Positions 2,012 through 52,119 are shown, numbered from the stretch's first letter. The stretch: DNA of 64,000 bases from a virus (IMGVR_UViG_3300035661_000054); one strand, 5' to 3'. The notes: generated by a model from the sequence alone, not told the origin. Program-made: numbers and translations.

Positions 2012-2572
2012 ATGAGTTCAAAAAATAAAGTGATTTTAATTGGTCGTTTGGGTAAAGATCCAGAAGTTCGTTTTACTCAAAATGGTACAGCTATTTGTAA
2101 TTTAACAGTTGCTACTTCGGAGGAGTGGAAGGATAAGCAAACTGGTGAAAAGCAAGAGAAAACTGAATGGCATCAATGTGTTATGTATGGTAAGCTTGGT
2201 GAGATTGCTGGTCAGTATTTAAAAAAAGGTTCTCAAGTTTATTTAGAAGGTAAATTAACTACAAGTAAATATCAGGATTCTAAAACTGGAGAAGATCGTT
2301 ATTCTACCAAGGTTCAATGTGATGAAATGATTATGCTTGGTGGTAATCAAGGTGGTAATCAAGGTGGTAATCAAGGTGGTAATCAAGGTGGTGGTAATCA
2401 AGGTGGTGGTAATCAAGGTGGTGGTAATCAAGGTGGTGGTTATCAACAACAACAAGCTCCTTCTCAGCCACGTAATGCCCAAAATGCTAATAACGGATAC
2501 CAGCAACAAAATAGTGGTTATCAAGGCGGATATTCTAATATGAATGATTTTGATGATGATATTCCGTTCTAA
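2012..2572 (+). CDS. ssb: single-stranded DNA-binding protein (bacterial OB-fold SSB type) with Gly/Asn/Gln-rich linker
   Basis: N-terminal SSB OB-fold sequence ([26 protein letters not shown]..); (GGNQ)n linker; canonical acidic C-terminal tail DDDIPF. Confidence 0.9.
2338..2450 (+). repeat. tandem 12/15-nt repeats (ggtggtaatcaa) encoding GGNQ repeats inside ssb
   Basis: about 8 direct tandem copies visible in sequence. Confidence 0.8.
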
Positions 2573-2678
2573 AATGTAATGTTGTGGGTGGTTTTAAAAA
2601 ACCACCCTAAATTGTATTAAAAAATTCTTATATTGTAATTGTTTTTTAATGCAATTTAATATAAGGTGAATTTAAAGT

Positions 2679-3425
2679 ATGTCTAATGTTTATTTTTGTT
2701 CTGACACTCATTTTGGTCATAGAAACATTCATAATTTTAGAAAGCAATTTTCTGATTCTTTTGAGCATGATGATTTTGTTTGCAACTCTATTTTGTCTGT
2801 TGTTAAAAAACGTGACACTTTATGGATTTTAGGTGATGTTTGTTTTGATTTATCTGCTTTTAACTATGTCAAGTTAATTGCAAGCAAGGTAAATCAATTA
2901 ATTATAGTTCCAGGTAATCATGATTTTGAAAAAGCTTGTGCGCCAAAAATTGAAGATTATTTATCTATTCCAAATGTTAAAATAAAGCCAATGACTGTTT
3001 ATAAGGGGTTTTGGGTTACTCATGCTCCTATTTATCCTTCAGAATTGCGTGGTAAGAGAAATATTCATGGTCATACACACTTTGACAATATTAATGATAA
3101 TAATTATTATAATGTATCTATGGAGAATATTAACTATAAACCAATATTATTCCAAGATTTGTTAGACAATATCAATGATTTTAAAAGAATAGATGAGCGA
3201 TTTAAGGCAAATTTTAAAGTAAAAATTAATTCTATTTATTTTGATGCTATTGATTTTTCAGCAAACGGTTTATCATTTAAATATAGTCATCATATTTTTA
3301 ATGTTGGTGATGTTGTTGATGTTTTATTGTGTTTTGGTGAGGAAGAATTATCGAAAAAATGTGAAATTATTAGTATTAAAACGAGCTTCGAACATGGTTA
3401 TCGCTATGGGTGTAAATTTGTTTAA
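2679..3425 (+). CDS. calcineurin-like metallophosphoesterase fused to C-terminal PilZ-like (c-di-GMP binding) domain
   Basis: Phosphoesterase motifs D-x-H (CSDTHFGH), GDxxD (GDVCFD), GNHD, GHTH; C-terminal RIDER..(RxxxR) and DFSANGLSF (D-x-S-x-x-G) PilZ-type motifs. Confidence 0.5.
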   Translation: MSNVYFCSDTHFGHRNIHNFRKQFSDSFEHDDFVCNSILSVVKKRDTLWILGDVCFDLSAFNYVKLIASKVNQLIIVPGNHDFEKACAPKIEDYLSIPNVKIKPMTVYKGFWVTHAPIYPSELRGKRNIHGHTHFDNINDNNYYNVSMENINYKPILFQDLLDNINDFKRIDERFKANFKVKINSIYFDAIDFSANGLSFKYSHHIFNVGDVVDVLLCFGEEELSKKCEIISIKTSFEHGYRYGCKFV

Positions 3426-3439
3426 TTAGAGGTTTACTT

Positions 3440-4453
3440 ATGATTAGGAATGATATAATTGCTGCAATAAAATTTATAGAAGATAATGGTTTGTCTTATA
3501 GTGTTGAAGTATTGTCTGTTTGTTGTGCTTTTTTAGAAGAAAATACTAACTTTGAATTAAAAGATAAAATAAATGTTTGTATTAATAATGGCACTCGATT
3601 GAATGATAATTTCATGAAAATACTTTTTTATAAAACATTTGTTGCTCCATCTGTGGATTTAAATGATGTTCAAGAATCTTTAAATGTTATAGATGAAATG
3701 ATTGAATCTGTAAGTGAAATTCATAAAGAAAATAAAAAAATTAATTCTAATATAGAACAAAAATTAAGTGAAGTTGCTTTAGAAAATCCTGTTCTTCACG
3801 TAGCTATAGCTGAAATCAGGGAGTCGGTTGACTCTTTAATGGTTAACTATTCTTCTGAAATAAAAGCTTTTGAAAGCTTTATTAATAAAGCAAAGAGAAT
3901 TAAATTAAAGTTATCTGAAAGTATTCTAAGTAAGAATATTGATTATTTGACGGGTTTAGGTAATATTGAATATCAAAGATTTATTATGAATGAAATTAAA
4001 AAAGAACTTCATTTAGAAAATAAATATTTTGCTTTAATAACATTGAAAAACTATAAAGATTATGAAGGTAATAAAACTCTTTATTTTTCTGTTATACGTG
4101 AGATAAAGAAAATGCTTGAACCTATTACTCATAAATCTTTTATAACGAGAGTAGATCATAATAAGTTTATGATTAATTTTTGTTCAGGTAATTTTTCTTT
4201 AGTGAGTGATTTTATTACTAAATTAGTCTCAGAACTTGAAAAAAAGAATTTAATCTATAAAGGAAACAATGAAAGAATTAGTAATTTAAAACTTAATGTG
4301 GTTTTTTATGAATTAAGGCAAGAAGATGAGTGTGATATTGTTTTGGATGAAATGTTTAAGCATTCTAATGTTGGTCATCGCTTCTTGAAGAAGTTTAAAA
4401 ATGATACTGTTTTTCTAAGTTTGGATAATACAAGAAGTTTTAGGCGGGTTTGA
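3440..4453 (+). CDS. degenerate (probably catalytically inactive) GGDEF-domain protein
   Basis: C-terminal half shows GGDEF-fold landmarks: DYLTGLGN (DxLTGLxNR-like), ALITLKNYKDYEG (D-x-D-x-FK-like), VDHNKF in place of GG(D/E)EF. Confidence 0.4.
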   Translation: MIRNDIIAAIKFIEDNGLSYSVEVLSVCCAFLEENTNFELKDKINVCINNGTRLNDNFMKILFYKTFVAPSVDLNDVQESLNVIDEMIESVSEIHKENKKINSNIEQKLSEVALENPVLHVAIAEIRESVDSLMVNYSSEIKAFESFINKAKRIKLKLSESILSKNIDYLTGLGNIEYQRFIMNEIKKELHLENKYFALITLKNYKDYEGNKTLYFSVIREIKKMLEPITHKSFITRVDHNKFMINFCSGNFSLVSDFITKLVSELEKKNLIYKGNNERISNLKLNVVFYELRQEDECDIVLDEMFKHSNVGHRFLKKFKNDTVFLSLDNTRSFRRV

Positions 4454-4497
4454 CTTATTAGAGATTTTTTGATATACTTGATATTAAGTTAAGTATA

Positions 4498-4526
4498 TTG
4501 AATTATTAGTAATTGTGTTGTATAAT
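4498..4526 (+). promoter_or_regulatory. candidate sigma70 promoter (TTGAAT-N17-TATAAT) for HDOD gene
   Basis: TTGAAT 4498-4503, TATAAT 4521-4526. Confidence 0.4.
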
Positions 4527-4550
4527 CACACATAATAGAGGTTAAACGTT

Positions 4551-5483
4551 ATGAGTAAAGTGCTTGCAAGTCATGCGATGTATGCTAAAAGAACCATCAT
4601 ACCAAGTGAGGGTTCTTTAAATATTAGTTGGAGGACAGAAGAAATTAAAAAGTCTATAGATTGGATGAATAATAAAAAAGATTTTCAATTCCCAGAAATG
4701 CCAGATGTTATGTTAAAAATATCTAATGAAATTCATGCTAAGTATCCTAACATTAACAATATTATTGCTTTAATTGAATCTAACCCAGTTTTATGTGGTG
4801 AGGTTATTGGTATCTTTTTAAGATTAGGGATTGATACAAATACTCAGAAAGTAATTACAATTGAATATATTATTTATTTAATAGGTTTAGAAAGAACTTA
4901 TGATATTGTAATGTCAGCATCTTTTAAACTAATTCCAATAAAAAATGAGTTTTTTGATAAAATATTGGATCACGTTGTTAATGTTTCTATTGCTTGTGCT
5001 AACATAGCTGGATTCATGAATAATGTTGTGATAGAAGAAGCCTATCTTTTTGGTATGTTTAAAGATAGTGGTTTTTTGCTCTTATCGACTCTTGATGATT
5101 TGAGCTTTAGAAAAGAATGGGAGTGTTCTTTATCGTTCCCAGGTTCTTATTCTAAACATAATAATAATAATAATAGTAATCATGAAATATTAAGTGTTAT
5201 TATGTCAAGAAAGTGGGGTATAGGTAAGACATCTTCTGGAGTTGATATATTGATTGCTATACAAGAACATCATAATGTTGAAGCAATTAATCAAATAAAA
5301 AATGATAAAGTAAGGACACTTATTGCCATTGGAATACTTGCTGAAGTTCTGGTTCTTGAAAATTTGAGTAAGTTTTATAAATCTACTGAAATTTTTACAC
5401 TAAAAGAAGAAATGATAAAGATATTAGATTTGAGTGAAAATATTGTTAATTCTGTCATCAGAAAAATAGTTAACGTAAAGTAA
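4551..5483 (+). CDS. HDOD-domain protein (HD-related output domain, c-di-GMP signalling associated)
   Basis: N-terminal FPEMPDVMLKISNEI...IIALIESNPVLCGEVIGIFLRLG pattern and later HVVNVSIACANIAGFM..EEAYLFGMFKDSGFLLL match the HDOD consensus. Confidence 0.5.
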   Translation: MSKVLASHAMYAKRTIIPSEGSLNISWRTEEIKKSIDWMNNKKDFQFPEMPDVMLKISNEIHAKYPNINNIIALIESNPVLCGEVIGIFLRLGIDTNTQKVITIEYIIYLIGLERTYDIVMSASFKLIPIKNEFFDKILDHVVNVSIACANIAGFMNNVVIEEAYLFGMFKDSGFLLLSTLDDLSFRKEWECSLSFPGSYSKHNNNNNSNHEILSVIMSRKWGIGKTSSGVDILIAIQEHHNVEAINQIKNDKVRTLIAIGILAEVLVLENLSKFYKSTEIFTLKEEMIKILDLSENIVNSVIRKIVNVK

Positions 5484-5500
5484 ACCCATTAAATGGGTTT
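5482..5500. terminator. bidirectional stem-loop terminator between convergent genes
   Basis: aaacccatttaaatgggttt perfect hairpin between 4551-5483(+) and 5499-6341(-). Confidence 0.6.
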
Positions 5501-6341
5501 ACTTAAAAACATGAATTAAATTTTCACTATCTTGTACTGTTTCTCCTAAATTATGAACTATTTTATTTCTTCCATTGTCCTTTGCTATATATAGCAAAGA
5601 ATCAGCTATTGAAAAGAATTCATTAAAATCTTTCTTTTCTTTTATCTCAATTAATCCACCACTTACTGTAACAATACCTGAATTGTTTTTAGCATGTTCT
5701 ATTGAGAGTGATTTGATTCTGTCTTGTAGTTTTTTAGAAAGATTGATAGCATCTTCTATCTTGTTTGTTTTAAATATAGAACAGAATTCCTCTCCGCCTA
5801 ATCTAAAAGAATAATCATTCTCTCTTTTAAATACGCCCAAAATTTCTTTGGCAATTTTTTGTAATACATTATCTCCACTTACATGACCATAAGTATCATT
5901 GTAAAGCTTAAAATTATCTACATCTATTAAAAGCATATTAATAAAATAGTTTTTATTTCTTAAACTGCTTAGAATTTCTTTATAAATAATATCTAAAAAT
6001 CTTCTATTATATAAAAGGGTTAAGTTATCTTTATAAGAAATTTCTTCAAGATTTTTTTGATAAGTAACATCATTTACAATAACTAATTTTTCGTTAGTTA
6101 TATAGTCAAAGTTAATAGAAAATTCATAAATTCTATCTTCAATATTTTCCATTAAATTTTCTTTATCTTTATTTAATTTAAAAAAATCATGTATTTCTCT
6201 TGCTAATAACTGATGACTTTTTGTTTTAAATTTCTTTTTCATTAATTCAATAAATTTTTTGCTATAGGTTGTTATTTCATTGTTTTTATTTAAAACACAG
6301 AACGAAATACTGCTTCCTAATATGCAATTTTTTTCAAACAT
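5499..6341 (-). CDS. PAS-like sensor / GGDEF diguanylate cyclase (active-site GGEEF)
   Basis: LTLLYNRRFLD (DxLTxLxNRR), LLIDVDNFKLYNDTYGHVSGD, RLGGEEF catalytic motif. Confidence 0.75.
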   Translation of the reverse strand: MFEKNCILGSSISFCVLNKNNEITTYSKKFIELMKKKFKTKSHQLLAREIHDFFKLNKDKENLMENIEDRIYEFSINFDYITNEKLVIVNDVTYQKNLEEISYKDNLTLLYNRRFLDIIYKEILSSLRNKNYFINMLLIDVDNFKLYNDTYGHVSGDNVLQKIAKEILGVFKRENDYSFRLGGEEFCSIFKTNKIEDAINLSKKLQDRIKSLSIEHAKNNSGIVTVSGGLIEIKEKKDFNEFFSIADSLLYIAKDNGRNKIVHNLGETVQDSENLIHVFK

Positions 6342-10703: not shown

Positions 10704-11447
10704 TTGGAGAGCTTTATTATGCAAAACAATTTTATTGCAGCTGTTTTTGACACAGAAACCACCGACATTAATGGTGAAATTATTCAAACTGGTTTTTTAG
10801 GTTTAAGTGGTAATTTTATTTACGACAACCAACAACCTTTAGTTTGGGGTCAAAATTATAAACCAGAAGGAAAAATTACTTTTGGTGCTATGGCAACTCA
10901 TCATATTCTTCCTGAAGAATTAGAGAATTGCCCTCCTTCAAGTTCTTTTTCTTTTCCAAAAGAAATTATTTACATGATTGGTCATAATGTTGATTACGAT
11001 TACGAAGTATCTGGAAAACCAGAGCATGTAAAACGTATTGATACTCTGGCTATGTCTCGTAAATTATATCCAGAAGATTCACACACTTTATCAGCAATGG
11101 TTTATCGTTTACAAACAGATAAAAAGGTTGCAAGAGAAATGGTGAAGATTGCTCATGATGCTCAAGGTGATGTTCGTATGACTTATTGGCTTTTATGTCA
11201 ATTAATTGAAGAAGCTAATAAGCGATTGAATGAGACTTCAAGTTCTTTCCGTCTTGTTGACTGGGAAAGTTTGTATCAGTTCTCTGAGCATTCTCGTATC
11301 CCTGATGTTATGCCTTTTGGTAAGCATAAAGGTGTTGCAATTAAAGAAGTTCCTGAAGATTATGTAAACTGGTATCGTCGTCAAGAGTCTCCAGATCCTT
11401 ACATTATTAAGGCTTTTGCTAAAGTGTTTCCAATAAAATCTGTTTAA
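10704..11447 (+). CDS. DnaQ/DexA-like 3'-5' exonuclease (DEDDh) with C-terminal DUF3820-like domain
   Basis: Exo I FDTETTD, Exo II HNVDYDYE, Exo III HDAQGDV; C-terminal FGKHKGVAIKEVPEDYVNWY resembles DUF3820 signature. Confidence 0.65.
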   Translation: MESFIMQNNFIAAVFDTETTDINGEIIQTGFLGLSGNFIYDNQQPLVWGQNYKPEGKITFGAMATHHILPEELENCPPSSSFSFPKEIIYMIGHNVDYDYEVSGKPEHVKRIDTLAMSRKLYPEDSHTLSAMVYRLQTDKKVAREMVKIAHDAQGDVRMTYWLLCQLIEEANKRLNETSSSFRLVDWESLYQFSEHSRIPDVMPFGKHKGVAIKEVPEDYVNWYRRQESPDPYIIKAFAKVFPIKSV

Positions 11448-12633: not shown

Positions 12634-12718
12634 GGGCTTGTGGTGGAACGGTATACACGTTAGTCTTAGAAACTAATGCCTTTTAGGATTGAGAGTTCAA
12701 GTCTCTCCAGGCCCACCA
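12634..12718 (+). tRNA. tRNA-Leu (anticodon TAG), long variable arm, CCA encoded
   Basis: Acceptor gggcttg/caggccc, anticodon arm ttagt-cttagaa-actaa, T-loop ttcaagt. Confidence 0.8.
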
Positions 12719-12761
12719 AAAAATCTTTTAAGGATTTAATGATTTCCTTTAAGGATTAAAT

Positions 12762-12835
12762 AAGGGGTTGATGTAATGGTAGCATAAGGGATTCCAAATC
12801 CTTTTGTATGGGTTCAAGTCCTATGCCCTTTGCCA
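12762..12835 (+). tRNA. tRNA-Trp (anticodon CCA)
   Basis: Anticodon arm aggga-ttccaaa-tcctt; T arm atggg-ttcaagt-cctat; 3' gcca. Confidence 0.75.
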
Positions 12836-12904
12836 AATTAAAGTGTTTGACAATGCTAAATGGTTTTGTTATAATACTTAAAAATCCTTAGAAATAAGGT
12901 AAAT

Positions 12905-12988
12905 GTCAGGGTGGTGGAACGGTATACACATCAGACTTAAAATCTGACGCTTTCGAGATTGAGGGTTCAAGTCCCTCCTCTGATACCA
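12905..12988 (+). tRNA. tRNA-Leu (anticodon TAA), long variable arm
   Basis: Anticodon arm tcaga-cttaaaa-tctga; D arm identical to Leu(TAG) copy; 3' acca. Confidence 0.75.
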
Positions 12989-13226
12989 AATTTGACACAG
13001 TTTTGTAAGTGTGTTATAATAAATGTCATGTAATAGGCCGTTATGTTGACAAAAAATAGCGAACCTCACTACCGTAGGGTGGGTGTTTAAGAATACAGGT
13101 AAAATATACTGAACTACGGACTAATTTCATACCAACCTTTGAAACTTTCGGTGCTAAAAGGATTGTGTAAAGTTAAAGAAATGTTAGGAATTGAGTACTA
13201 TTGATTTTCTTTAAAACCGTAAAATG

Positions 13227-13309
13227 TAGGGGTGGCAGAGTGGTTGAATGCACCTGACTGTAAATCAGGCTCTTAGGACACGTAGGTTCAAATCCTACCC
13301 CTTACACCA
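13227..13309 (+). tRNA. tRNA-Tyr (anticodon GTA), long variable arm
   Basis: Acceptor gtagggg/cccttac, anticodon arm cctga-ctgtaaa-tcagg, T arm gtagg-ttcaaat-cctac. Confidence 0.8.
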
Positions 13310-13400
13310 GAATTGTGGTTCAGTTACTTTGAGAGAAATTTTATTTTTACTGAACCCAGAATGCTCCTCAAAATCCTCCTTATTTGGGTTGAGCTTCTGA

Positions 13401-13474
13401 CCTTGATAAATAACAGCCTTTACGTGGCTTCAAGGATAAGTAGGATTTAAAAATCTGAAACCAATGTTATTAAG
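13401..13474 (+). repeat. inter-tRNA repeat element copy 1 (ccttgataaataacagcctttacgtggcttcaagg + ggatttaaaaatc hairpin)
   Basis: One of 8 related copies between tRNA genes. Confidence 0.8.
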
Positions 13475-13496
13475 AATGTATGGTATATGATTAAAG

Positions 13497-13570
13497 TGGT
13501 GTTGGTGTAATGCAGTAGACTTTTAATCTGTTGATTGATGGTTCGAGTTCATTTTATTCCGCCAGATTTG
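13497..13570 (+). pseudogene. tRNA-Lys(TTT)-like pseudogene (D-arm deletion, poor acceptor/T stems)
   Basis: Shares gtaatgcag.agacttttaatctgttgattgatggttcga with intact tRNA-Lys at 14300 but lacks about 6 nt of D arm and CCA-proximal pairing. Confidence 0.4.
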
Positions 13571-13737
13571 ATCTTTAAAATTGTAAGGAACTTGGCTATA
13601 GTTTTTAAGTATGTTGTAGTAAGGTATTGGGGGTATTTGCTTTAAATGTTTGTTTAATGCGCTTACATTGTTGTTCATTATATGCCTTATAAAATAGGAA
13701 TAATAACACTTGGTAAAAATAATTAAAGTATTAGGAG

Positions 13738-14031
13738 ATGTCATTAATGAATGCGCAACGAAAATATAACAAACTAAAGAAAAGACTTGGTATTGCTAAA
13801 GAATCTATCATTCATCAAATGATTTTGTTATATGGTGATACTAACTTAGCGTATGGTAAAGCGTATACTATTCTAAAGAAATTAACTACTAAAGTCTTAA
13901 AGGAAGTTAAACCTGAAATACTTGATGATGAATACGAGTTTAATAAACATTATTGTAAGAATCAAGTTTATGTTAATTTGAAGCATAGAGGTTTTTCTAA
14001 AATTAAATCAAAATACTTTAGAATTAGATGA
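13738..14031 (+). CDS. hypothetical small basic protein embedded in tRNA array
   Basis: 97-aa ORF with aggag RBS; start may be second ATG at 13747. Confidence 0.3.
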   Translation: MSLMNAQRKYNKLKKRLGIAKESIIHQMILLYGDTNLAYGKAYTILKKLTTKVLKEVKPEILDDEYEFNKHYCKNQVYVNLKHRGFSKIKSKYFRIR

Positions 14032-14040
14032 ATAAGAAAT

Positions 14041-14114
14041 GCGGGATTGATGTAGTGGTAACATGCTATCCTTCCAAGTTGGTCTCAACGGTTCGAATCC
14101 GTTATCCCGCTCCA
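14041..14114 (+). tRNA. tRNA-Gly (anticodon TCC)
   Basis: Acceptor gcgggat/atcccgc perfect; loop c-t-TCC-a-a; anticodon stem has U30-U40 mismatch. Confidence 0.65.
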
Positions 14115-14115
14115 A

Positions 14116-14188
14116 CCATAATTAATAACGGCCTTTACGTGGCTTTAGGGATAAGTAGGATTTAAAAATCTGAAACCAATGTTATTAA
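14116..14188 (+). repeat. inter-tRNA repeat element copy 2
   Basis: ccataattaataacggcctttacgtggctttagggataagtaggatttaaaaatctgaaaccaatgttattaag. Confidence 0.8.
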
Positions 14189-14256
14189 GAATGTAGAGTA
14201 TGTGATTAAAGTAATCCTGCGGTAAGGGATAATGTTTTGATTCTTTATGTTCTTTG

Positions 14257-14285
14257 TTGACATTATTATTTCTTTGAAGTATAAT
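14257..14285 (+). promoter_or_regulatory. sigma70-type promoter TTGACA-N17-TATAAT upstream of tRNA-Lys
   Basis: TTGACA 14257-14262, TATAAT 14280-14285. Confidence 0.55.
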
Positions 14286-14299
14286 GTAAATAAATTAAA

Positions 14300-14374
14300 G
14301 GGGTGGTAGCATAATGGTAATGCAGCAGACTTTTAATCTGTTGATTGATGGTTCGACTCCATCTCATCCCACCA
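14300..14374 (+). tRNA. tRNA-Lys (anticodon TTT)
   Basis: Acceptor ggggtgg/tcatccc, anticodon arm gcaga-cttttaa-tctgt, T arm gatgg-ttcgact-ccatc. Confidence 0.8.
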
Positions 14375-14489
14375 AATTAAATGTTATCAAATGGCTTAAC
14401 ATTTGACGTTTCAATTCATAACGAAAGAATTGACTATGATAGGTAAAGAGAATAGAGTTCCGTAGATCCTATCCTAACTACGGTAAATT

Positions 14490-14565
14490 GCGTGATTGAT
14501 GTTTAATGGTAGCATGTTGTCCTTCCAAGTCAATCGTAGCGGTTCGAATCCGCTATCACGCTCCA
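14490..14565 (+). tRNA. tRNA-Gly (anticodon TCC), second copy
   Basis: Acceptor gcgtgat/atcacgc perfect; same cttccaa loop and same U30-U40 mismatch. Confidence 0.65.
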
Positions 14566-14566
14566 A

Positions 14567-14640
14567 CCCTAATTAATAATAGCCTTTACGTGGCTTTAGG
14601 GATAAGTAAGATTGAGAAAATCTGAAACTAATATTATTAA
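14567..14640 (+). repeat. inter-tRNA repeat element copy 3 (compensatory stem ccctaa/ttaggg)
   Basis: ccctaattaataatagcctttacgtggctttagggataagtaagattgagaaaatctgaaactaatattattaa. Confidence 0.8.
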
Positions 14641-14641
14641 T

Positions 14642-14729
14642 GGAATCGTGGCAGAGCGGTTGAATGCAACGGTCTTGAAAACCGTCGAGGGTAATACCTC
14701 CGTGAGTTCGAATCTCACCGATTCCGCCA
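14642..14729 (+). tRNA. tRNA-Ser (anticodon TGA), long variable arm
   Basis: Acceptor ggaatcg/cgattcc, anticodon arm acggt-cttgaaa-accgt, T arm with ttcgaat. Confidence 0.85.
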
Positions 14730-14795
14730 AATAAATTTGACATATTTATTTTTATTTGTTATAATTCACAAATATGATAATTTAGTCAATTAAAT

Positions 14796-14870
14796 TGGTG
14801 TGTGGCGCAGCGGTAGCGCAGCGGACTGTTAATCCGTTGGTCGTAGGTTCGAATCCTACCATACCAGCCA
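14796..14870 (+). tRNA. tRNA-Asn (anticodon GTT)
   Basis: Acceptor tggtgtg/catacca, D arm gcgc-agcggta-gcgc, anticodon arm gcgga-ctgttaa-tccgt. Confidence 0.8.
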
Positions 14871-14871
14871 A

Positions 14872-14916
14872 CTCTCAAAATAGAACTGGCCTTTATGTGG
14901 CTTGAGAGATAAGTAG
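14872..14916 (+). repeat. inter-tRNA repeat element copy 4 (partial; compensatory stem ctctcaa/ttgagag)
   Basis: ctctcaaaatagaactggcctttatgtggcttgagagataagtag. Confidence 0.7.
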
Positions 14917-15221
14917 TTTGCGATTGTCTTTTTGAATGGCAATTCTAACGAAACCAACAGTTTAGAGTGTGGTAAGCTCGATAGGTTAATGTTAAGCCTA
15001 ATAATGGATAAGAAGGATACTCCAATCCAGATAATTAATTAATGTATTAATTTAGTAACAATCAGGGTAATCCAGATGTTTTAGTCTCGCAAAACGATAA
15101 CAGTTACAACTGTCGAGAATAAATTATTGTTTTTTAATTTGATTAATGAATGAGTTAGATTTGATCACTAATGAGTTTATTGTGGAACTATAGTTTAAAA
15201 GCCTTCAATAACATAAATAAT

Positions 15222-15297
15222 TGCAGAGTAGTAGCAGTGGTAGCTCGTCAGCCTCATAAGCTGAAGGTCGGTGGTTCGAATCCATCCTCTGCGTCCA
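15222..15297 (+). tRNA. tRNA with anticodon CAT (Met elongator, initiator or lysidine-modified Ile2)
   Basis: Acceptor tgcagag/ctctgcg, anticodon arm tcagc-ctcataa-gctga perfect, T arm ggtgg-ttcgaat-ccatc. Confidence 0.8.
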
Positions 15298-15355
15298 AAA
15301 TATTTAGTTAGCTACAGTGATTCAATAATTATTGTAAAAATAATTATAAAAACTA

Positions 15356-15384
15356 TTGACAAATAGAAAAATATGTTTTATAAT
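15356..15384 (+). promoter_or_regulatory. sigma70-type promoter TTGACA-N17-TATAAT
   Basis: TTGACA 15356-15361, TATAAT 15379-15384. Confidence 0.55.
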
Positions 15385-15436
15385 TATTTTATGTTTTTGC
15401 TTAAGTTTTTAAGCGTTATTTTAAAGGAAGAAGAAA

Positions 15437-15562
15437 ATGAACAAAGCTCATATTAATTTTATTAGTGTTGATTTTACAGCTCAAGCTGTAAGCTTTGTTA
15501 CGCCTATGGAATTTGCTATGCCTCAAGCGCAGACTGAGATTAGCGAAAAAGGGACGGGTTGA
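15437..15562 (+). CDS. small ORF (41 aa, MNKAHINFISVDFTAQAVSFVTPMEFAMPQAQTEISEKGTG) with own promoter and terminator inside tRNA array
   Basis: RBS aaggaag 7 nt upstream of ATG; promoter 15356-15384; terminator 15590-15617; not in ORF track because <60 aa. Confidence 0.3.
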   Translation: MNKAHINFISVDFTAQAVSFVTPMEFAMPQAQTEISEKGTG

Positions 15563-15589
15563 TAATACTTCTTTAATTAGATTTTATTT

Positions 15590-15617
15590 AAAACCCGCCA
15601 TTAAAGCGGGTTTTTTT
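15590..15617 (+). terminator. rho-independent terminator
   Basis: aaaacccgccattaaagcgggttttttt. Confidence 0.7.
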
Positions 15618-15620
15618 ATA

Positions 15621-15690
15621 CCTTGATAAATAACAGCCTTTACGTGGCTTCAAGGATAAGTAGGATTAAAATCCGAAACTAATGTTATTA
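15621..15690 (+). repeat. inter-tRNA repeat element copy 5
   Basis: ccttgataaataacagcctttacgtggcttcaaggataagtaggattaaaatccgaaactaatgttattaaa. Confidence 0.8.
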
Positions 15691-15696
15691 AATCGT

Positions 15697-15772
15697 GGGG
15701 TTATGGTATAAATGGCTAACACAGTACCCTTGCAAGGTACAGTTCTGAGTTCGATGCTCAGTGGCTCCACCA
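15697..15772 (+). tRNA. tRNA-Ala (anticodon TGC) with G3-U70
   Basis: Acceptor ggggtta/tggctcc gives G3:U70 wobble; anticodon arm gtacc-cttgcaa-ggtac perfect; T arm ctgag-ttcgatg-ctcag. Confidence 0.8.
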
Positions 15773-15778
15773 AAAAAT

Positions 15779-15854
15779 TGTTTCTTAGCTCAGTTGGTAG
15801 AGCATTCGGCTGATAACCGAAAGGTCACTGGTTCAAATCCAGTAGAAACAACCA
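15779..15854 (+). tRNA. tRNA-Ile (anticodon GAT)
   Basis: Acceptor tgtttct/agaaaca, D arm gctc-agttggtag-agc, anticodon arm ttcgg-ctgataa-ccgaa. Confidence 0.85.
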
Positions 15855-15855
15855 T

Positions 15856-15931
15856 CAGTATGTAGGGAAGTTGGTATCCCACTTGATTTGGATTCAAGAG
15901 ATCGTAGGTTCGAGTCCTACCATACTGACCA
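15856..15931 (+). tRNA. tRNA-Pro (anticodon TGG)
   Basis: Acceptor cagtatg/catactg perfect, anticodon arm cttga-tttggat-tcaag, T arm gtagg-ttcgagt-cctac. Confidence 0.85.
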
Positions 15932-15938
15932 AAAATTT

Positions 15939-16015
15939 GTCTCCTTCGACTATGTTGGTTAGGTCATTACTCTCTCAGGGTGAAAAGATGGGATCGTCGC
16001 CCATAGGAGACTCCA
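15939..16015 (+). tRNA. tRNA-Glu variant (anticodon CTC)
   Basis: Acceptor gtctcct/aggagac perfect; anticodon arm ttact-ctctcag-ggtga; paralogue of Glu(TTC) at 16259; unusual T loop atcgtcg. Confidence 0.6.
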
Positions 16016-16022
16016 AATAAAT

Positions 16023-16099
16023 GGTTAATTAGCTCAGTTGGTTAGAGCGTTTCACTCATAACGAAAAGGTCGGTGGTTCAATTCCACCATTAACCACCA
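16023..16099 (+). tRNA. tRNA with anticodon CAT (second copy; Met or Ile2)
   Basis: Acceptor ggttaat/attaacc perfect; loop c-t-CAT-a-a; A31-C39 mismatch at base of anticodon stem. Confidence 0.75.
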
Positions 16100-16101
16100 A
16101 A

Positions 16102-16173
16102 CCTTGATGAATAACAGCCTTTACGTGGCTTCAAGGATAAGTAGGATTAAAATCCGAAACTAATGTTGTTAAA
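16102..16173 (+). repeat. inter-tRNA repeat element copy 6
   Basis: near-identical to copy 5. Confidence 0.8.
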
Positions 16174-16177
16174 TCGT

Positions 16178-16253
16178 GGGGTTATGGTATAAATGGCTAA
16201 CACAGTACCCTTGCAAGGTACAGTTCTGAGTTCGATGCTCAGTGGCTCCACCA
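16178..16253 (+). tRNA. tRNA-Ala (anticodon TGC), duplicate
   Basis: Identical to 15697-15772. Confidence 0.8.
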
Positions 16254-16258
16254 AAAAA

Positions 16259-16335
16259 GTCTCCTTCGACTATGTTGGTTAGGTCATCACCCTTTCAAGG
16301 TGAAGAGATGGGATCGTCACCCATAGGAGACGCCA
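16259..16335 (+). tRNA. tRNA-Glu (anticodon TTC)
   Basis: Acceptor gtctcct/aggagac; anticodon arm tcacc-ctttcaa-ggtga perfect. Confidence 0.75.
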
Positions 16336-16342
16336 AATAAAT

Positions 16343-16419
16343 GGTTAATTGGCTAAGTTGGTTAGAGTGTTTCACTCATAACGAAAAGGTCGGTGGTTCA
16401 ATTCCACTATTAACAACCA
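16343..16419 (+). tRNA. tRNA with anticodon CAT (third copy; diverged, G1-A72 mismatch)
   Basis: Same anticodon arm as 16023 copy; D arm changed (ggctaagttggttagagtg); 3' acceptor attaaca leaves position 1-72 unpaired. Confidence 0.6.
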
Positions 16420-16421
16420 AA

Positions 16422-16490
16422 CCTTGATGAATAACAGCCTTTACGTGGCTTCAAGGATAAGTAGGATTAAAATCCGAAACTAATGTTATT
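16422..16490 (+). repeat. inter-tRNA repeat element copy 7
   Basis: ccttgatgaataacagcctttacgtggcttcaaggataagtaggattaaaatccgaaactaatgttatt. Confidence 0.8.
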
Positions 16491-16493
16491 GAA

Positions 16494-16581
16494 GGAAGAT
16501 TGTCAGAGTGGTCTATTGTGCTTCTTTGCTAAAGAAGTGGGTTTAATCGCCCCACAGGTTCGAATCCTGTATCTTCCGCCA
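16494..16581 (+). tRNA. tRNA-Ser (anticodon GCT), long variable arm
   Basis: Acceptor ggaagat/atcttcc, anticodon arm cttct-ttgctaa-agaag, variable arm tgggtttaatcgcccca. Confidence 0.85.
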
Positions 16582-16583
16582 AT

Positions 16584-16657
16584 TCAGGGATCGTCTAATG
16601 GTAGGACACGAGACTTTGATTCTCGGTATTGTGGTTCGACTCCATGTCCCTGAGCCA
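16584..16657 (+). tRNA. tRNA-Gln (anticodon TTG)
   Basis: Acceptor tcaggga/tccctga perfect, anticodon arm cgaga-ctttgat-tctcg perfect. Confidence 0.8.
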
Positions 16658-16658
16658 T

Positions 16659-16733
16659 GTTTATTTAGCTTAATGGTAGAGCATTTCGTTTACACCGAAA
16701 GGGTTGGGGGTTCGAATCCCTCAAGAAACACCA
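16659..16733 (+). tRNA. tRNA-Val (anticodon TAC)
   Basis: Anticodon arm tttcg-tttacac-cgaaa, D arm gctt-aatggta-gagc, T arm ggggg-ttcgaat-ccctc. Confidence 0.75.
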
Positions 16734-16737
16734 ACTT

Positions 16738-16811
16738 GCCGCTTTAGTATAATGGCATTACAGTTGACTTGTAATCATCTGATCGCAGTTCGATTCTGTG
16801 AAGCGGCACCA
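16738..16811 (+). tRNA. tRNA-Thr (anticodon TGT)
   Basis: Acceptor gccgctt/aagcggc perfect; loop c-t-TGT-a-a; one U-U mismatch in anticodon stem. Confidence 0.7.
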
Positions 16812-16813
16812 AA

Positions 16814-16884
16814 CCTTGATGAATAACAGCCTTTATGTGGCTTCAAGGATAAGTAGGGTTAAAATCCGAAACTAATGTTATTAA
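16814..16884 (+). repeat. inter-tRNA repeat element copy 8
   Basis: ccttgatgaataacagcctttatgtggcttcaaggataagtagggttaaaatccgaaactaatgttattaatg. Confidence 0.8.
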
Positions 16885-16964
16885 TGGTGAAGTTATTGTA
16901 AAGATAGTATATTGTCTTTGAATAATCTGTTTAGATTTATAATTCCTAACTTCACCCTCAAATT

Positions 16965-17040
16965 GGTCTTGTAGTGTTAGCGGTAAGCACGTAAGCCTGT
17001 CACGCTTATAGGGTGGGTTCGAATCCCATCAAGATCGCCA
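16965..17040 (+). tRNA. tRNA-Asp (anticodon GTC)
   Basis: Acceptor ggtcttg/caagatc, anticodon arm taagc-ctgtcac-gctta perfect, T arm gtggg-ttcgaat-cccat. Confidence 0.8.
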
Positions 17041-33514: not shown

Positions 33515-34633
33515 ATGAATATCAATGACATGAAGTTAGCTTTAGAGCGTGAAGAAATTCGAGTTCGTAATGAAACTGTGGATGGTGTTAATTTATCTAT
33601 TGTTTCTTATATGGTAGCAACTCCTGATTTATGGGATGTTGAAAATGCATTGGAGGCTCGTGGCATTACTTTTGACGAAAATGGTAATTGTGTTGCTCGT
33701 ACTATGGAAAAATTCTTTAATGTTGGTGAAAATAAATACACTCAACTTTCTGAATCTGATTTTTTAGGTTCTTATGTTTTTGATAAGCTTGATGGTTCTA
33801 TGATTTCCGTTGTTATGATTAATGGAAAATTATTTGCTAAAAGTAAGAAGTCTTTTTATTCCGATGTTGCTTTAATGGCTCAAAAATTTATTGATATTAA
33901 TCAGAATTATCAAGAATTTTGTAGAAGAATTATTGGTTCTGGTTATACTCCTACATTTGAGTTTGAATCTCCTGATGCTCAAATTGTAGTAGAACAAAAA
34001 GAAGAAAAAATGACTTTGCTTTTGGTTAGGGATATTGAAAGTGGAAAATATCTTGAATTTGATTGTTTAGTAAATTTGGCTAAAGAGTACAATATTCCTG
34101 TTGTAAGTGGCATGTGTTTTGATGATTTTTATAATCGTTTTTTGGTTTCTCAAGATGAAAACTTTTTAGATTTTTTACGAAAAAATGTAAAAGATGTTGA
34201 AGGTTGGGTTTTCTTGTTATCAACTGGACAACGTGTTAAATTAAAAACTGATTGGTATTTGTTGCGTCATCGTTTAACTTCTTATCATGAGAGAAATATT
34301 TTTGATTTAATTATTAATGAAGAGATTGATGATATTATGCCTTTGATTGAGAAAAAAGATGGTGCTGTTGATATTGTTAATCAAATTGGTCATCGTATTG
34401 CTCATTTTTATAAAGTTACTATGGATGAAACTATTGGTTTAGTTAATTTATGGAAAGAACAAGGTTTATCTTTATCTGAGATTGGTAAAAATTACTCAAA
34501 TAATATTTATTTTGGTTTAGCGATCAAATTATTCAAAGAACAAGAGCCAGATTATAAAAAATTTATTGTCAATACTTACCGTAAGGATTTCCACACTAAA
34601 TCTGTTTTTTGGGGTTTTGATACTGATTCCTAA
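33515..34633 (+). CDS. rnlA: RNA ligase 1 (T4 RnlA-like)
   Basis: CVARTMEKFFNVGEN vs T4 IASRPMEKFFNLNEN; LDGSMISVV vs EDGSLVSTY; PTFEFESPDAQIVV...KMTLLLVRDIESGKYLEFD vs T4 ANFEFVAPTNRIVL...KIILLNVRENETGEYISYD. Confidence 0.8.
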   Translation: MNINDMKLALEREEIRVRNETVDGVNLSIVSYMVATPDLWDVENALEARGITFDENGNCVARTMEKFFNVGENKYTQLSESDFLGSYVFDKLDGSMISVVMINGKLFAKSKKSFYSDVALMAQKFIDINQNYQEFCRRIIGSGYTPTFEFESPDAQIVVEQKEEKMTLLLVRDIESGKYLEFDCLVNLAKEYNIPVVSGMCFDDFYNRFLVSQDENFLDFLRKNVKDVEGWVFLLSTGQRVKLKTDWYLLRHRLTSYHERNIFDLIINEEIDDIMPLIEKKDGAVDIVNQIGHRIAHFYKVTMDETIGLVNLWKEQGLSLSEIGKNYSNNIYFGLAIKLFKEQEPDYKKFIVNTYRKDFHTKSVFWGFDTDS

Positions 34634-37012: not shown

Positions 37013-38707
37013 ATGCAAAAATTAAATTCACAGATTTTAATGTCTGCGGACAGTTACAAATTAACACATGTCGATCAAATTATTGAGGGGACTACTCATA
37101 TTTATGAGACTTTTACTCCTCGAAGTCTAAAACATTTACCAAAAGAAGTTAAAGAACTTACAAATAATAAAATTATTTGGTTTGGTTTTCAGTCAACTAT
37201 CAAAATGATTCATGATAAATTTCAAGAAGAATTTTTTTCTAAAAATTATGATGAAGCTGTGCATTACTTTCTAAGTCAAGTAGGATTTTTTACTGGTGGT
37301 TCTTACGATGATTCTCATATTTATGAATTACACAAGCTTGGGTATTTACCGATTAAAGTAAAATCTCTTGAAGAAGGTAGTTTGGTTAATGTAAAAATCC
37401 CATGTATGACCATTATTAATACTGTTCCAGGCTATGCTTGGTTGGTTGGCTATCTTGAAACTATTTTATCGAATGAAACATGGAAATCTACCACTAATGC
37501 AACCATTGCTTTTGCTTATCGTAAATTGTTTACAAAGGCAGCTATGGAAACAGTTGGTAATGATGAGTTCGTTAAATGGCAAGGTCATGATTTTTCAGCC
37601 CGTGGTATGTCTGGATCGGCTGATGCTTCAAAACAAGGAATGAGCCATTTGACCTCGTTTTTTGGTTCTGACGCTTTTGGAAGTATGTTACCTATTAGTT
37701 ACTATTATAATGAAAGTATTAATAATTTCATTGCTGGTTCTATTAGAGCTTCTGAACACATGACAGAAACATTAGCTATTCAGGTTTTAGCAAAAAAACA
37801 CAATGTTGATTTAGATGAAGCTGAATATATGCAAATGAAGCGATTGATAACTGAGGTTTACCCTACAGGTATTGTTGCTCGTGTTTGTGATTCTTATGAT
37901 TATTGGAATGTTGTAACAAATATTATTCCGAGATTAAAAGAAGATATTATGAATCGTGGACAAGATTCTAAGGGTTTTTCAAAAGTTGTAATTCGACCAG
38001 ATTCAGGTGAACCTGTAGATATTATTTGCGGTACTGCTATTCCTGTTTTTACATTAACAGATGTTGAGCGTTGGTTTAAAGAAAACAAACATAAAGAATC
38101 TCAAATCTTTGTAAAAATTGATGGTAATAATGTGGCTCATTATATGAATTGTGAAGTAACTGAAAATGGTATTGTTACTAATGAAATTCCTTCTAATAAA
38201 GTTACAGCAGAAATGAAAGGTACTGTTTCTTGTTTATGGGAAATTTTTGGTGGTACAATAACTGAAAAAGGTTATAAACTACTTGATAATCATATTGGTA
38301 TGATTTATGGTGATTCAATCACTATTAAAAGAGCTGAAGAGATTGTTTTTCGTTTAAAAATGAAAGGCTTTGCTTCTATTAATACTTTGCTTGGTATCGG
38401 TTCTTATACATACCAAATGGTTAGTAGGGATACGCTTGGTATGGCTTTAAAGGCGACCTTTGCTATTGTTGATGGTCAAGAAATTGATTTAAATAAAAAC
38501 CCAAAAACAGATGATGGAACAAAAAAATCTGCAAAAGGAAGAGTAAGGGTTGAAAAAAATAATTCAGAATATGTTTTATTTGATCAGCAAAGTGAACAAG
38601 AAGAAGCTGGTGGATTATTAAGAATTGTTTATTGTGATGGTAAATTCTTAAATCAACAAACTTTTTCTGATATTAGAACAATTATTGATTCTAATGTTTT
38701 GTTGTAA
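37013..38707 (+). CDS. nadV: nicotinamide phosphoribosyltransferase family protein (NadV/NAMPT-like; alternatively NARP1 Namat-like)
   Basis: NAMPT family hallmark VIRPDSGEPVDII and overall type II phosphoribosyltransferase organisation; 564 aa is longer than canonical NAMPT. Confidence 0.8.
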   Translation: MQKLNSQILMSADSYKLTHVDQIIEGTTHIYETFTPRSLKHLPKEVKELTNNKIIWFGFQSTIKMIHDKFQEEFFSKNYDEAVHYFLSQVGFFTGGSYDDSHIYELHKLGYLPIKVKSLEEGSLVNVKIPCMTIINTVPGYAWLVGYLETILSNETWKSTTNATIAFAYRKLFTKAAMETVGNDEFVKWQGHDFSARGMSGSADASKQGMSHLTSFFGSDAFGSMLPISYYYNESINNFIAGSIRASEHMTETLAIQVLAKKHNVDLDEAEYMQMKRLITEVYPTGIVARVCDSYDYWNVVTNIIPRLKEDIMNRGQDSKGFSKVVIRPDSGEPVDIICGTAIPVFTLTDVERWFKENKHKESQIFVKIDGNNVAHYMNCEVTENGIVTNEIPSNKVTAEMKGTVSCLWEIFGGTITEKGYKLLDNHIGMIYGDSITIKRAEEIVFRLKMKGFASINTLLGIGSYTYQMVSRDTLGMALKATFAIVDGQEIDLNKNPKTDDGTKKSAKGRVRVEKNNSEYVLFDQQSEQEEAGGLLRIVYCDGKFLNQQTFSDIRTIIDSNVLL

Positions 38708-38747
38708 ATAGGGTGGATTATTCCATCCTTTCTAAAAGGAAATAAAT

Positions 38748-39608
38748 GTGTTAAAAATTATTACAGAAAGTGGAAAAGAAATTAACTTCAAAGAAATTAA
38801 TTATCCAAGTGGTGAATTTGATTTTAATATTGTTTTTAATCATGAAATAATGTCTTTAGTTAAACATGAATATGTTGTAATTAAAAATAATTTTTCAAAT
38901 ATTAACAATGTTTTTAAAATTCCTTTCTTAGTTAATGCTCTAATTCAATCAGGTTTTAAGGAAATTAAAATTCAGTTTGATTACTTGCCGTTTAGTAGAC
39001 AGGACAGGTCTTTTATTGCAAACTCTTCTTTTGGCTTAGAATCGTTCATTAAAATTTTATCTGGTTCTGGTGTTAATGAGATTATTGTTGATGATCCGCA
39101 TAATGAAGATGTTTTAAGTTTGCTTTGTAGTAAATACGGATTAAAAATTACTGTTAATACACAAAGCTTTTTAATTAAAAGTAAATTAAATCAACATTTT
39201 TCACTTGATGAAAAAACAGCTTTGGTTTGTCCTGATAAAGGTGCTTTAAAAAAGATTATACCTTTATCTGACGAATTAGGTTTAACGGTTGTTTTGGCTG
39301 AAAAAACTCGTTCCTTAGCTGACGGAAAGATTGTTGACACTAAAATTGTTGGTTATCAACAAAATGGAGAAACAACTTTATTTTTAAATGATGTTGATTT
39401 TTTAAATAATTTTGATAAATTAATTATTGTAGATGATATTTGTGATGGTGGTGCTACTTTTATTGCTTTAGCAAATGTTATTAGAAGTCTTGACTACAAA
39501 GGTGAAATGATTTTGATTGTAACTCATGGGTTTTTCTCAAAAGGACTTGAACCTTTGTTAGCTAAATTTGATTCAGTTTTAAGTATTCATTATTACTCTA
39601 AAATTTGA
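38748..39608 (+). CDS. ribose-phosphate pyrophosphokinase-like protein (Prs homologue; alternatively NARP1 Adps-like)
   Basis: GTG start after RBS aaggaaataaat; PRPP-binding-type motif LIIVDDICDGGATF; immediately downstream of nadV-like gene. Confidence 0.6.
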   Translation: MLKIITESGKEINFKEINYPSGEFDFNIVFNHEIMSLVKHEYVVIKNNFSNINNVFKIPFLVNALIQSGFKEIKIQFDYLPFSRQDRSFIANSSFGLESFIKILSGSGVNEIIVDDPHNEDVLSLLCSKYGLKITVNTQSFLIKSKLNQHFSLDEKTALVCPDKGALKKIIPLSDELGLTVVLAEKTRSLADGKIVDTKIVGYQQNGETTLFLNDVDFLNNFDKLIIVDDICDGGATFIALANVIRSLDYKGEMILIVTHGFFSKGLEPLLAKFDSVLSIHYYSKI

Positions 39609-51691: not shown

Positions 51692-51744
51692 CTATTGACA
51701 AACATTATTTGGTTTGTTATACTTATATCAAATGGTTGTGGTCT

Positions 51745-52037
51745 TAAGACATAGTTAAATATTTTTAAGCATCTGGAAGGCGGTTCGATTCCGCCCATCT
51801 CCACCAAAAAATATATTGTTTAGTATGTTTTTTAATGGGGATGACCAGGTTTCGACAGGTGTGTTAAGGGTATTGATGACAACTTCGCAAGGTGGAAGCG
51901 ATCTCTCTATGAGAAAAGAAACAAAAAAATAAATGCAAACGACGAAAACTTTGCTATTGCAGCTTGATACTGCTTGGGTTTGAGATACCTCTAAACAGAA
52001 CATCTCAATCGAACCTTACCTAACGGTAAGGTTTTTT
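51745..52037 (+). ncRNA. ssrA: tmRNA (ssrA), apparently circularly permuted two-piece form
   Basis: Acceptor piece ends 51806 with T arm ggcgg-ttcgatt-ccgcc, 3' acceptor catctcc, A, CCA. Coding piece starts 51837 with ggggatgaccaggtttcgacagg (GGGGnUGA..GGnUUCGACGGG tmRNA 5' consensus), pairs with G3-U70. Tag ORF 51935-51967 is gcaaacgacgaaaactttgctattgcagcttga (ANDENFAIAA-stop). Terminator 52011-52037. 5' boundary of acceptor piece uncertain. Confidence 0.6.
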
Positions 52038-52042
52038 AATTA

Positions 52043-52119
52043 GCACAGGTGTCAGAGTGGTCTATTGAGGTGGATTGCAAATCCATTGTTCAGCGGTTCG
52101 AATCCGCTCTTGTGCTCCA
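52043..52119 (+). tRNA. tRNA-Cys (anticodon GCA)
   Basis: Acceptor gcacagg/cttgtgc, anticodon arm gtgga-ttgcaaa-tccat, T arm agcgg-ttcgaat-ccgct, 3' tcca. Confidence 0.75.

Follow-up and report, generated by a model that had tools for sequence, protein, structure and literature searches.

The 64,000-nt stretch of viral DNA IMGVR_UViG_3300035661_000054 (the window, below), which from its gene content appears to derive from a phage, contains a tRNA gene cluster that holds 8 plus-strand copies of one element of 69–93 nt. We report that this element very probably has the fold of ribozymes like that of the hepatitis delta virus (HDV), and we suggest, by analogy with ribozymes of that type, that the copies are likely to self-cleave and to serve tRNA 3' processing in the window phage. 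The fold is argued from covariation in 2 crossing helices, and the proposed activity from the conserved positions of the core and from the location of the predicted cleavage sites.

Architecture of the repeated element

A sequence-only reading of this region had described 8 copies of a structured repeat between tRNA genes, with a covarying outer stem and a conserved inner loop, and had argued for a functional RNA structure over a duplication scar. We found all 8 copies, counting each from the first base of the outer stem (P1) to the last base of the 3' strand of a second helix (P2'). As had been described, the outer stem is CCTTGA/TCAAGG in 5 copies, whereas copy 3 has CCCTAA/TTAGGG and copy 4 has CTCTCAA/TTGAGAG. 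Compensatory changes are seen at positions 2, 3 and 5 of the stem. The copy at position 14116 (copy 2), which the earlier description omitted, has the outer stem CCATAA/TTAGGG with an A.G mismatch; over its full length this P1 (CCATAAT/TTTAGGG) forms 5 of 7 pairs, and with P1 so weakened copy 2 may be impaired. The inner hairpin (P3), here too in agreement with the earlier description, is conserved as (A/G)GCC-TTTAYGT-GGCT. The single stem first proposed was incomplete, in that it missed a second, long-range helix (P2) formed by AATAACA, 7 nt that directly precede the inner hairpin, with TGTTATT at the 3' end of the element. This helix covaries as well: copy 3 has AATAATA/TATTATT, copy 4 has GAACTG/CAGTTT, and copies 2 and 6 carry G.U variants. 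The covarying P1 and P2 together bear out a functional structure. Both P1 and P2 of copy 4 are wholly unlike those of the other copies, and its P4 region is 34 nt long. Within the window, copies 3 and 4 compensate in both helices, which implies continued selection on the fold.

P2 crosses P1, and the strand order P1-P2-P3-P3'-P1'-P4-P2' is therefore that of a nested double pseudoknot, the architecture of HDV-like ribozymes. At the RNA level, P1 pairs CCUUGAU with UUCAAGG, P2 pairs AAUAACA with UGUUAUU, and P3 (GCC/GGC, with the 7-nt loop UUUACGU) is located inside P1; a short variable hairpin (P4) is located inside P2, and the junction before P2' reads C-Y-A-A. The window consensus, in segments, is CCTTGAT-A-AATAACA-GCC-T-TT-ACGT-GGC-TTCAAGG-AT-AAGTA-P4-GAAA-CTAA-TGTTATT. 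The seventh P1 pair is U.U in 6 copies, and P2 fits all elements if a single bulged nucleotide is optionally permitted after its first pair. In minimum free energy (MFE) folding, copy 5 forms P1, P3 and P4, and copy 2 folds without P1.

We counted pairs on an anchor-based, N-padded alignment of 29 distinct elements (8 from the window and 21 from freshwater metagenome or viral contigs, described below), which was substituted for a MAFFT full-element alignment that the variable lengths of J1/2 and P4 made unusable for this purpose. For P1 and for P2 alike, 16 distinct strands occur among 21 classes, and these are still complementary to their partners. Paired cells amounted to 97.2%, against 69.0 +/- 1.3 in column shuffles (reached in 0 of 500), and controls in which the partners were slid by 1–3 columns had only 30–45% of cells paired. 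Two-sided changes were observed in 12 of 16 pairs (144 cells vs 40.5), and P3 was invariant across the alignment. We also used a permutation test that repeats the register search on mismatched 5' and 3' partners, so that any bias from the search is equal in the controls; true partners gave 6.62 of 7 pairs for P1 (5.59 +/- 0.14 in permutations) and 5.0 of 5 for P2 (3.55 +/- 0.16), and neither value was reached in 5000 permutations.

The single-stranded core carries the sequence hallmarks of the HDV type. The loop of P3 (L3) is of the U-NN-NCGY type, 7 nt long and closed by the 3-bp P3, and the core GCC-UUUACGU-GGC is found in 29 of 34 elements of the family, the remaining L3 variants being UUUAUGU, UUUACGC and UUUCCGU. 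The segment J4/2 is CUAA or CCAA, a string identical to that in theta and minimal drz ribozymes, and the junction C that heads it (in GAAAC-N-AA) is present in all 34 elements; by analogy, we infer that this C is the catalytic residue. In the window the core GCCTTTAYGTGGCTT occurs exactly 8 times, whereas shuffled sequences lead one to expect 0.2 occurrences even with up to 2 mismatches. A structural descriptor that is generic for HDV-like ribozymes, its only family-specific sequence being the L3 and C-N-A-A patterns, matched 7 copies, each on the plus strand, and failed on copy 2 because P1 of that copy has only 5 of 7 pairs. Putting A, G or U in place of the C left no match, and 20 shuffled windows gave none either. 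The J1/4 segment (AUAAGUA) and the GAAAC sequence are also strongly conserved, beyond what the HDV consensus needs.

Known ribozymes and relatives in other contigs

The Rfam search that the sequence-only reading had proposed was made on two scales. A scan of 8 kb at E<=1 returned no match at the copies, and a scan of a single window copy returned HDV-F-prausnitzii (RF02682) as the only sense-strand match at E<=10, over the full length of the model (1–74) and with L3 and J4/2 aligned, at a sub-threshold 15.5 bits (E 0.42). The same family was the only match to a relative on contig L123 that lacks P4 (13.4 bits, E 1.3). The RF02682 ribozyme, drz-Fprau-1, resembles the window element in L3 (CCUCUACGUGG in the model, CCUUUACGUGG here), in J4/2 (GCUAA, ACUAA here) and in having a Watson-Crick first P1 pair (G1-C in RF02682); it differs in the +1 base, which is C here and not G, and in the sequences of P4 and J1/4.

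The closest parallel is provided by the theta ribozymes, minimal HDV-like ribozymes located beside tRNAs in gut Caudoviricetes, for which in vitro cleavage of 4 tRNA-ribozyme pairs has been demonstrated (Kienbeck et al. 2024, PMC10879173). According to the same study, tRNA nucleotidyltransferase and RNA ligase are enriched 250-fold and 140-fold, respectively, in ribozyme-bearing phages, theta ribozymes are limited to gut phages (>80% of theta hits), many of them recoded, and 4.5% of theta-associated tRNAs encode CCA (PMC10879173). Our element shares with theta ribozymes the HDV-like double pseudoknot, a cut (here predicted from sequence) within a few nucleotides of a phage tRNA 3' end, the L3 pattern U-NN-ACGY, the J4/2 string CUAA, a 7-bp P2 and a 3-bp P3, and the use of one ribozyme sequence for several tRNA isotypes; the genome also has a CCA-transferase-like gene and RNA ligase genes, a circumstantial likeness in that large phages often carry them. 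In contrast, the first base pair is C1-G here, whereas the published theta and drz examples that we compared all start with G; L3 is U-UU-ACGU where theta and minimal drz examples have U-CC-ACGY; and P1.1 would be UU/AU in place of CC/GG, UC/GA or GC/GC. Theta ribozymes lack P4, and the window copies have a P4 region of 12–34 nt (a hairpin of 12–15 nt in 7 copies, 34 nt in copy 4). Further differences are that the window tRNAs encode CCA, with 1–2 A residues before the predicted cut, that the window has no suppressor tRNA or sign of recoding, and that the relatives come from lake metagenomes and not from guts. A covariance model built from theta sequences misses the window copies, so that the copies and the theta set are not closely related in sequence; the likeness is one of architecture and catalytic-core motifs. 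Strings of the window family were also not found in the part of the theta supplements that a text search covered, a search that may miss strings spanning vertical-bar separators. By analogy, we file the element as a new member of the HDV-like class that would do a theta-type job in the window phage, outside the theta sequence group. On this view the RNA belongs to a catalytic type already known, in a role described only recently, and no new principle is involved.

The motif search elsewhere that had been proposed did recover a well-populated family, usually not near a called tRNA. Megablast of the tRNA cluster against GenBank phages gave matches to tRNA-Ser only and no relative. A first IMG/VR scan with a 15-mer core was too unspecific (at least 120 single matches, mostly chance, with 3 contigs that later proved to hold true family members), and a second pattern, made to include GGCTT...G, proved too strict and gave no match. 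A 21-base pattern made of the core and J1/4 matched 8 IMG/VR loci and 25 metagenome loci; many of the latter bear lake-metagenome identifiers, and some lie on contigs of ~165 kb. The pattern was absent from 185,579 bacterial and archaeal species genomes, which accordingly give no clue to a host. The relatives keep GCCTTTACGTGGC, ATAAGTA and GAAAC-N-AA, while their P1 and P2 sequences are unrelated to those of the window and to each other. They usually sit in stretches free of open reading frames (ORFs) or ~25–30 nt ahead of an ORF.

Three contexts among these relatives may be described. In a group of freshwater contigs (L125, positions 1–1100; also L137, L142, L124 and L121) a GC-richer non-coding unit of ~270 nt, repeated 3 times at least in part, has the ribozyme at its 3' end. 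Rfam gave no match to this unit, and the window lacks it; it has the look of an undescribed structured RNA that the ribozyme would release. A contig with an IMG/VR name of the giant-virus metagenome-assembled genome (GVMAG) type (L126/L146, positions 2100–4450, minus strand) has 4 copies with the canonical G1.U start, 3 of them with ATTGTAG as J1/4. Each of these copies is located ~13 nt past a conserved GGTTTCTCTCACCAAAAAA, which is able to pair with an upstream AAAAGAGAG, and one of the stems so formed encloses a tRNA-Glu. Contigs of ~165 kb (L123, L129, L139, L143, L050 and L109) carry a 'minimal' version without P4, 23–28 nt upstream of an ORF of ~70–78 aa; this is a 5' untranslated region (UTR) context, not a tRNA context. 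Possibly, and we put this forward tentatively, the elements represent an undescribed clade of HDV-like ribozymes that serve as general RNA punctuation and are apparently confined to large freshwater viruses. The clade would be marked by the C1-G pair, the fixed GCCUUUACGUGGC core, the AUAAGUA J1/4 and the GAAAC-Y-AA junction; its contigs include giant-virus MAG bins.

A putative role in tRNA 3' processing

The copies share their orientation with the tRNAs and with the promoters of the cluster. The predicted cut falls 1, 1, 1, 2, 2 and 2 nt past the encoded CCA of tRNA-Gly, Gly, Asn, Met, Met and Thr, respectively, and the predicted cleavage site is thus within +/-5 nt of a tRNA 3' end, the distance used for theta-type ribozymes, in 6 of the 8 copies. 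In 4 copies the next tRNA starts 3–7 nt after the end of the element. The earlier statement that the repeats lie between tRNAs holds for most of the copies, including these 6, and fails for copy 1, which is 91 nt from tRNA-Tyr, and for copy 5, which follows an ORF and a hairpin. Copies also bound 2 segmental duplications of 93–94% identity (15620–15798 with 16101–16279, and 15939–16173 with 16259–16493), and near-identical copies were therefore probably the recombination points in duplication of the tRNA cassette Ala-(Ile-Pro)-Glu-Met.

We propose that each repeat acts as an HDV-like self-cleaving ribozyme within polycistronic tRNA precursors. By analogy with HDV-like ribozymes, the nucleotide that directly precedes P1, almost always an A, would attack its own phosphate through the 2'-OH, with the junction C as the general acid (as in HDV, CPEB3 and theta ribozymes), and the chain would break immediately upstream of C1 to leave a 2',3'-cyclic phosphate on the upstream RNA and a 5'-OH on the ribozyme. 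From the positions observed, 6 of the copies would release their tRNAs with only A or AA as a trailer. RNase P acting at the next tRNA, where one starts 3–7 nt downstream, would then free the ribozyme as an RNA of ~70 nt, and copy 5 would separate a small mRNA that ends in a terminator hairpin from the array of 13 tRNAs that follows. The cyclic phosphate and the extra A would have to be removed before aminoacylation, presumably by the phage's own polynucleotide kinase/3'-phosphatase (PNKP) and then by exonuclease trimming, with a CCA-transferase-like protein as a possible backup.

Several observations weigh against this proposal. That any member of the family cleaves is read from sequence and analogy, and 17 of the 23 tRNAs in the cluster have no ribozyme behind them. 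The predicted cut leaves 1–2 extra A residues and a cyclic phosphate, so that other enzymes would still be required, and PNKP and T4 RnlA-type RNA ligase (Rnl1) are common in large phages, whether ribozyme-bearing or not. The RF02682 scores are far under the gathering score of 44 bits, and a covariance model of P1 and P3 from 9 published theta or minimal drz sequences gave the copies only partial matches of 5–7 bits, with or without filters; this model is small, and its null result is weak evidence against the fold. In the alignment, complementarity guided the choice of P1 register and of P2 bulge, a bias that remains despite the permutation control. At the cleavage site, all 8 copies and 30 of the 34 elements have a C1-G pair and not the usual G1.U, which is confined to the 4 L126 elements, and P1.1 could form at most one U-A pair plus a U.U (L3 UU vs J1/4 AU), with both sides invariant; G1A variants of the CPEB3 ribozyme have very low activity. 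Yet L1TcRz, an HDV-like ribozyme from the 5' end of the Trypanosoma cruzi L1Tc retrotransposon, is experimentally active with a product that begins at C1 and with a single-pair P1.1 (PMC3185411), and neither feature therefore excludes activity. L1TcRz otherwise differs from our element, being a eukaryotic 5'-end processing element with no tRNA context and unrelated sequence. P1 sequences that are otherwise unrelated keep C1-G, which speaks for selection on this pair.

These departures bring up the question of whether the element is a structured spacer that lacks catalysis, serving as a recognition or insulation site for a nuclease (RNase E, III or P) or persisting as a stable by-product RNA. 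The T4 tRNA cluster offers a precedent for the latter: among its tRNA genes this phage also encodes two small RNAs other than tRNAs, species 1 and 2, which are freed from the same precursors; they are tRNA-like RNase P substrates and are not known to be ribozymes. Unlike these, the copies gave no tRNA call with ARAGORN or Rfam. A spacer would account for the placement of the element exactly between tRNA 3' and 5' ends, for the missing G1.U wobble and 2-bp P1.1, and for the lack of significant scores with Rfam and the theta-derived model. It would, however, demand a coincidental match to the L3 pattern, to the invariant C-N-A-A junction and to 2 crossing, covarying helices; relatives also occur far from any called tRNA, and L1TcRz is active with C1 and a 1-bp P1.1. 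We regard a non-catalytic spacer as unlikely. The sequence-only reading had offered a processing signal, a T4-type stable RNA or a protein-binding site; tRNA processing is retained in our proposal, and the signal for a host nuclease, the stable RNA and the binding site give way to the anatomy of an HDV-like ribozyme.

Loss of activity within the HDV-like fold is also to be weighed, the window copies then being decayed or very slow and acting mainly as recombination substrates or as protective 5' structures. The U.U at the seventh P1 pair of 6 copies, the added A.G mismatch and P1-less MFE fold of copy 2, and the duplicated cassettes that the copies bound would all suit this account; but every core position is intact in 7 of the 8 copies, which also match the structural descriptor, and copies 3 and 4 have kept their pairing through compensatory changes. 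We judge this account to be improbable. Conservation of J1/4 (AUAAGUA) and GAAAC beyond the HDV consensus might point instead to an RNA that binds a ligand or protein, as a riboswitch-like regulator or a decoy, and is pseudoknotted by chance. This we consider very improbable, since there is no expression platform, the copies are located between tRNAs and not ahead of genes, and the positions that are conserved are those of the HDV catalytic core. Least credible of all is a repeat that acts at the DNA level with no RNA function (a duplication scar, a tRNA trailer, or a recombinase or homing-enzyme site): several copies do lie inside larger segmental duplications (families D2, D5, D7 and D8), but the compensatory changes affect 2 helices, one of them long-range, the element is found on one strand only, and its core occurs with unrelated flanks in other viral contigs. 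Specifically, we rejected the 3' trailer of a duplicated tRNA, since the element follows 4 different tRNA species and 2 non-tRNA sequences in the window and elsewhere is usually away from called tRNAs. Two other candidates were rejected. A promoter (TTGATA inside P1) would have no suitably spaced -10, and perfect consensus promoters are found elsewhere; a tRNA-like structure, with P2 as a 7-bp 'acceptor' plus 2 hairpins, is recognized as a tRNA by neither ARAGORN nor Rfam, and its linkers are unsuitable. A self-cleaving HDV-like ribozyme thus remains the reading that we prefer.

Features of the cluster and window, and implications

Coordinates of the putative ribozymes and of the genes relevant to the proposal are given in Table 1. 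The cluster contains 5 perfect (12/12) promoters of the sigma-70 type (TTGACA-17-TATAAT) on the plus strand, with the -35 elements starting at 12847, 12992, 14257, 14737 and 15356, and is therefore split into several strongly driven units.

Table 1. Putative ribozyme copies, the tRNA cluster and RNA-processing genes of the window
Feature	Position	Strand	Remarks
Ribozyme copy 1	13401-13471	+	91 nt past tRNA-Tyr; candidate catalytic C 13461; P1 13401-13407/13429-13435; P2 13409-13415/13465-13471; P3+L3 13416-13428; J1/4 13436-13442; P4 13443-13456
Ribozyme copy 2	14116-14186	+	1 nt past CCA of tRNA-Gly(UCC); candidate catalytic C 14176
Ribozyme copy 3	14567-14638	+	1 nt past CCA of second tRNA-Gly, 3 nt before tRNA-Ser(UGA); candidate catalytic C 14628
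Ribozyme copy 4	14872-14964	+	1 nt past CCA of tRNA-Asn; candidate catalytic C 14954
Ribozyme copy 5	15621-15689	+	abuts terminator-like hairpin after 41-aa ORF, 7 nt before tRNA-Ala; candidate catalytic C 15679
Ribozyme copy 6	16102-16170	+	2 nt past CCA of tRNA-Met, 7 nt before tRNA-Ala; candidate catalytic C 16160
Ribozyme copy 7	16422-16490	+	2 nt past CCA of tRNA-Met, 3 nt before tRNA-Ser(GCU); candidate catalytic C 16480
Ribozyme copy 8	16814-16882	+	2 nt past CCA of tRNA-Thr; L3 = TTTATGT; candidate catalytic C 16872
Cluster of 23 tRNA genes	12634-17040	+	all with encoded CCA
Polynucleotide kinase / 3'-phosphatase, T4-type	39691-40695	+	AAA_33 kinase + HAD_PNKP
T4 RnlA-type RNA ligase (Rnl1)	33515-34633	+	context
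RNA ligase family protein, PF09414	62599-63672	+	context
Head domain, CCA tRNA nucleotidyltransferase / poly(A) polymerase family	49906-50562	-	half usual length; context

Other features were observed within the cluster. At 15437–15619, the 41-aa ORF is followed by the terminator-like hairpin (AAACCCGCC...GCGGGTTTTTTT) that abuts copy 5, and the region gave a weak Rfam match to Trp_leader (34.6 bits vs a gathering score of 41). Between copy 8 and tRNA-Asp, at 16886–16955, there is a structure of ~70 nt with a 10-bp closing stem (GGUGAAGUUA/UAACUUCACC) and 2 inner hairpins (MFE -18.3 kcal/mol, z -3.3), which neither ARAGORN nor Rfam called as a tRNA. Two stretches of ~200–260 nt without a long ORF, 13021–13225 (after a perfect promoter and before tRNA-Tyr) and 14965–15221 (from copy 4 to tRNA-Met), may encode further small RNAs. 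Downstream of copy 1, positions 13504–13561 hold a tRNA-Lys remnant that is 84% identical to part of the tRNA-Lys at 14317–14385 and scores 25.9 bits in Rfam, under threshold.

Elsewhere in the window, at 51714–53228, a tmRNA gene whose tag is ANDENFAIAA runs into the start of a tRNA-Cys, and a TilS-like PP-loop protein is encoded next. Genes of cyclic-di-GMP type (Metallophos+PilZ, HDOD and a GGDEF diguanylate cyclase), an unusual viral cargo, are found at 2679–6341, with an M48 peptidase and an outer-membrane beta-barrel protein nearby. Genes of NAD salvage type (NAMPT/NAPRTase family, phosphoribosyltransferase-domain and weakly NMN-transporter-like) are located at 37013–39608 and 53240–53848. 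The ORF at 10704–11447, considered as a candidate RNase T, is best matched by exodeoxyribonuclease X or another DEDD exonuclease, and the RNase T assignment was given up.

If our proposal is correct, ribozyme-driven tRNA 3'-end processing would extend beyond gut phages to a large AT-rich phage, in which the module is used 8 times in one array. The results also suggest that current searches undercount HDV-like ribozymes, as this family lacks both the G start of the theta examples compared and the CC/GG P1.1 of the main theta set, and falls far under Rfam thresholds. Should the elements further prove to be a clade used for RNA punctuation, they would free tRNAs in the window phage and, elsewhere, the ~270-nt tandemly repeated non-coding RNA, and would occupy 5' UTRs; with 2',3'-cyclic-phosphate ends to repair, tRNA activation would rely on PNKP and CCA repair enzymes of the virus itself. 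The array is a compact natural system in which to study how a C1-G cleavage-site pair works, how cyclic-phosphate tRNA ends are healed and whether repeated ribozymes drive the shuffling of tRNA cassettes.

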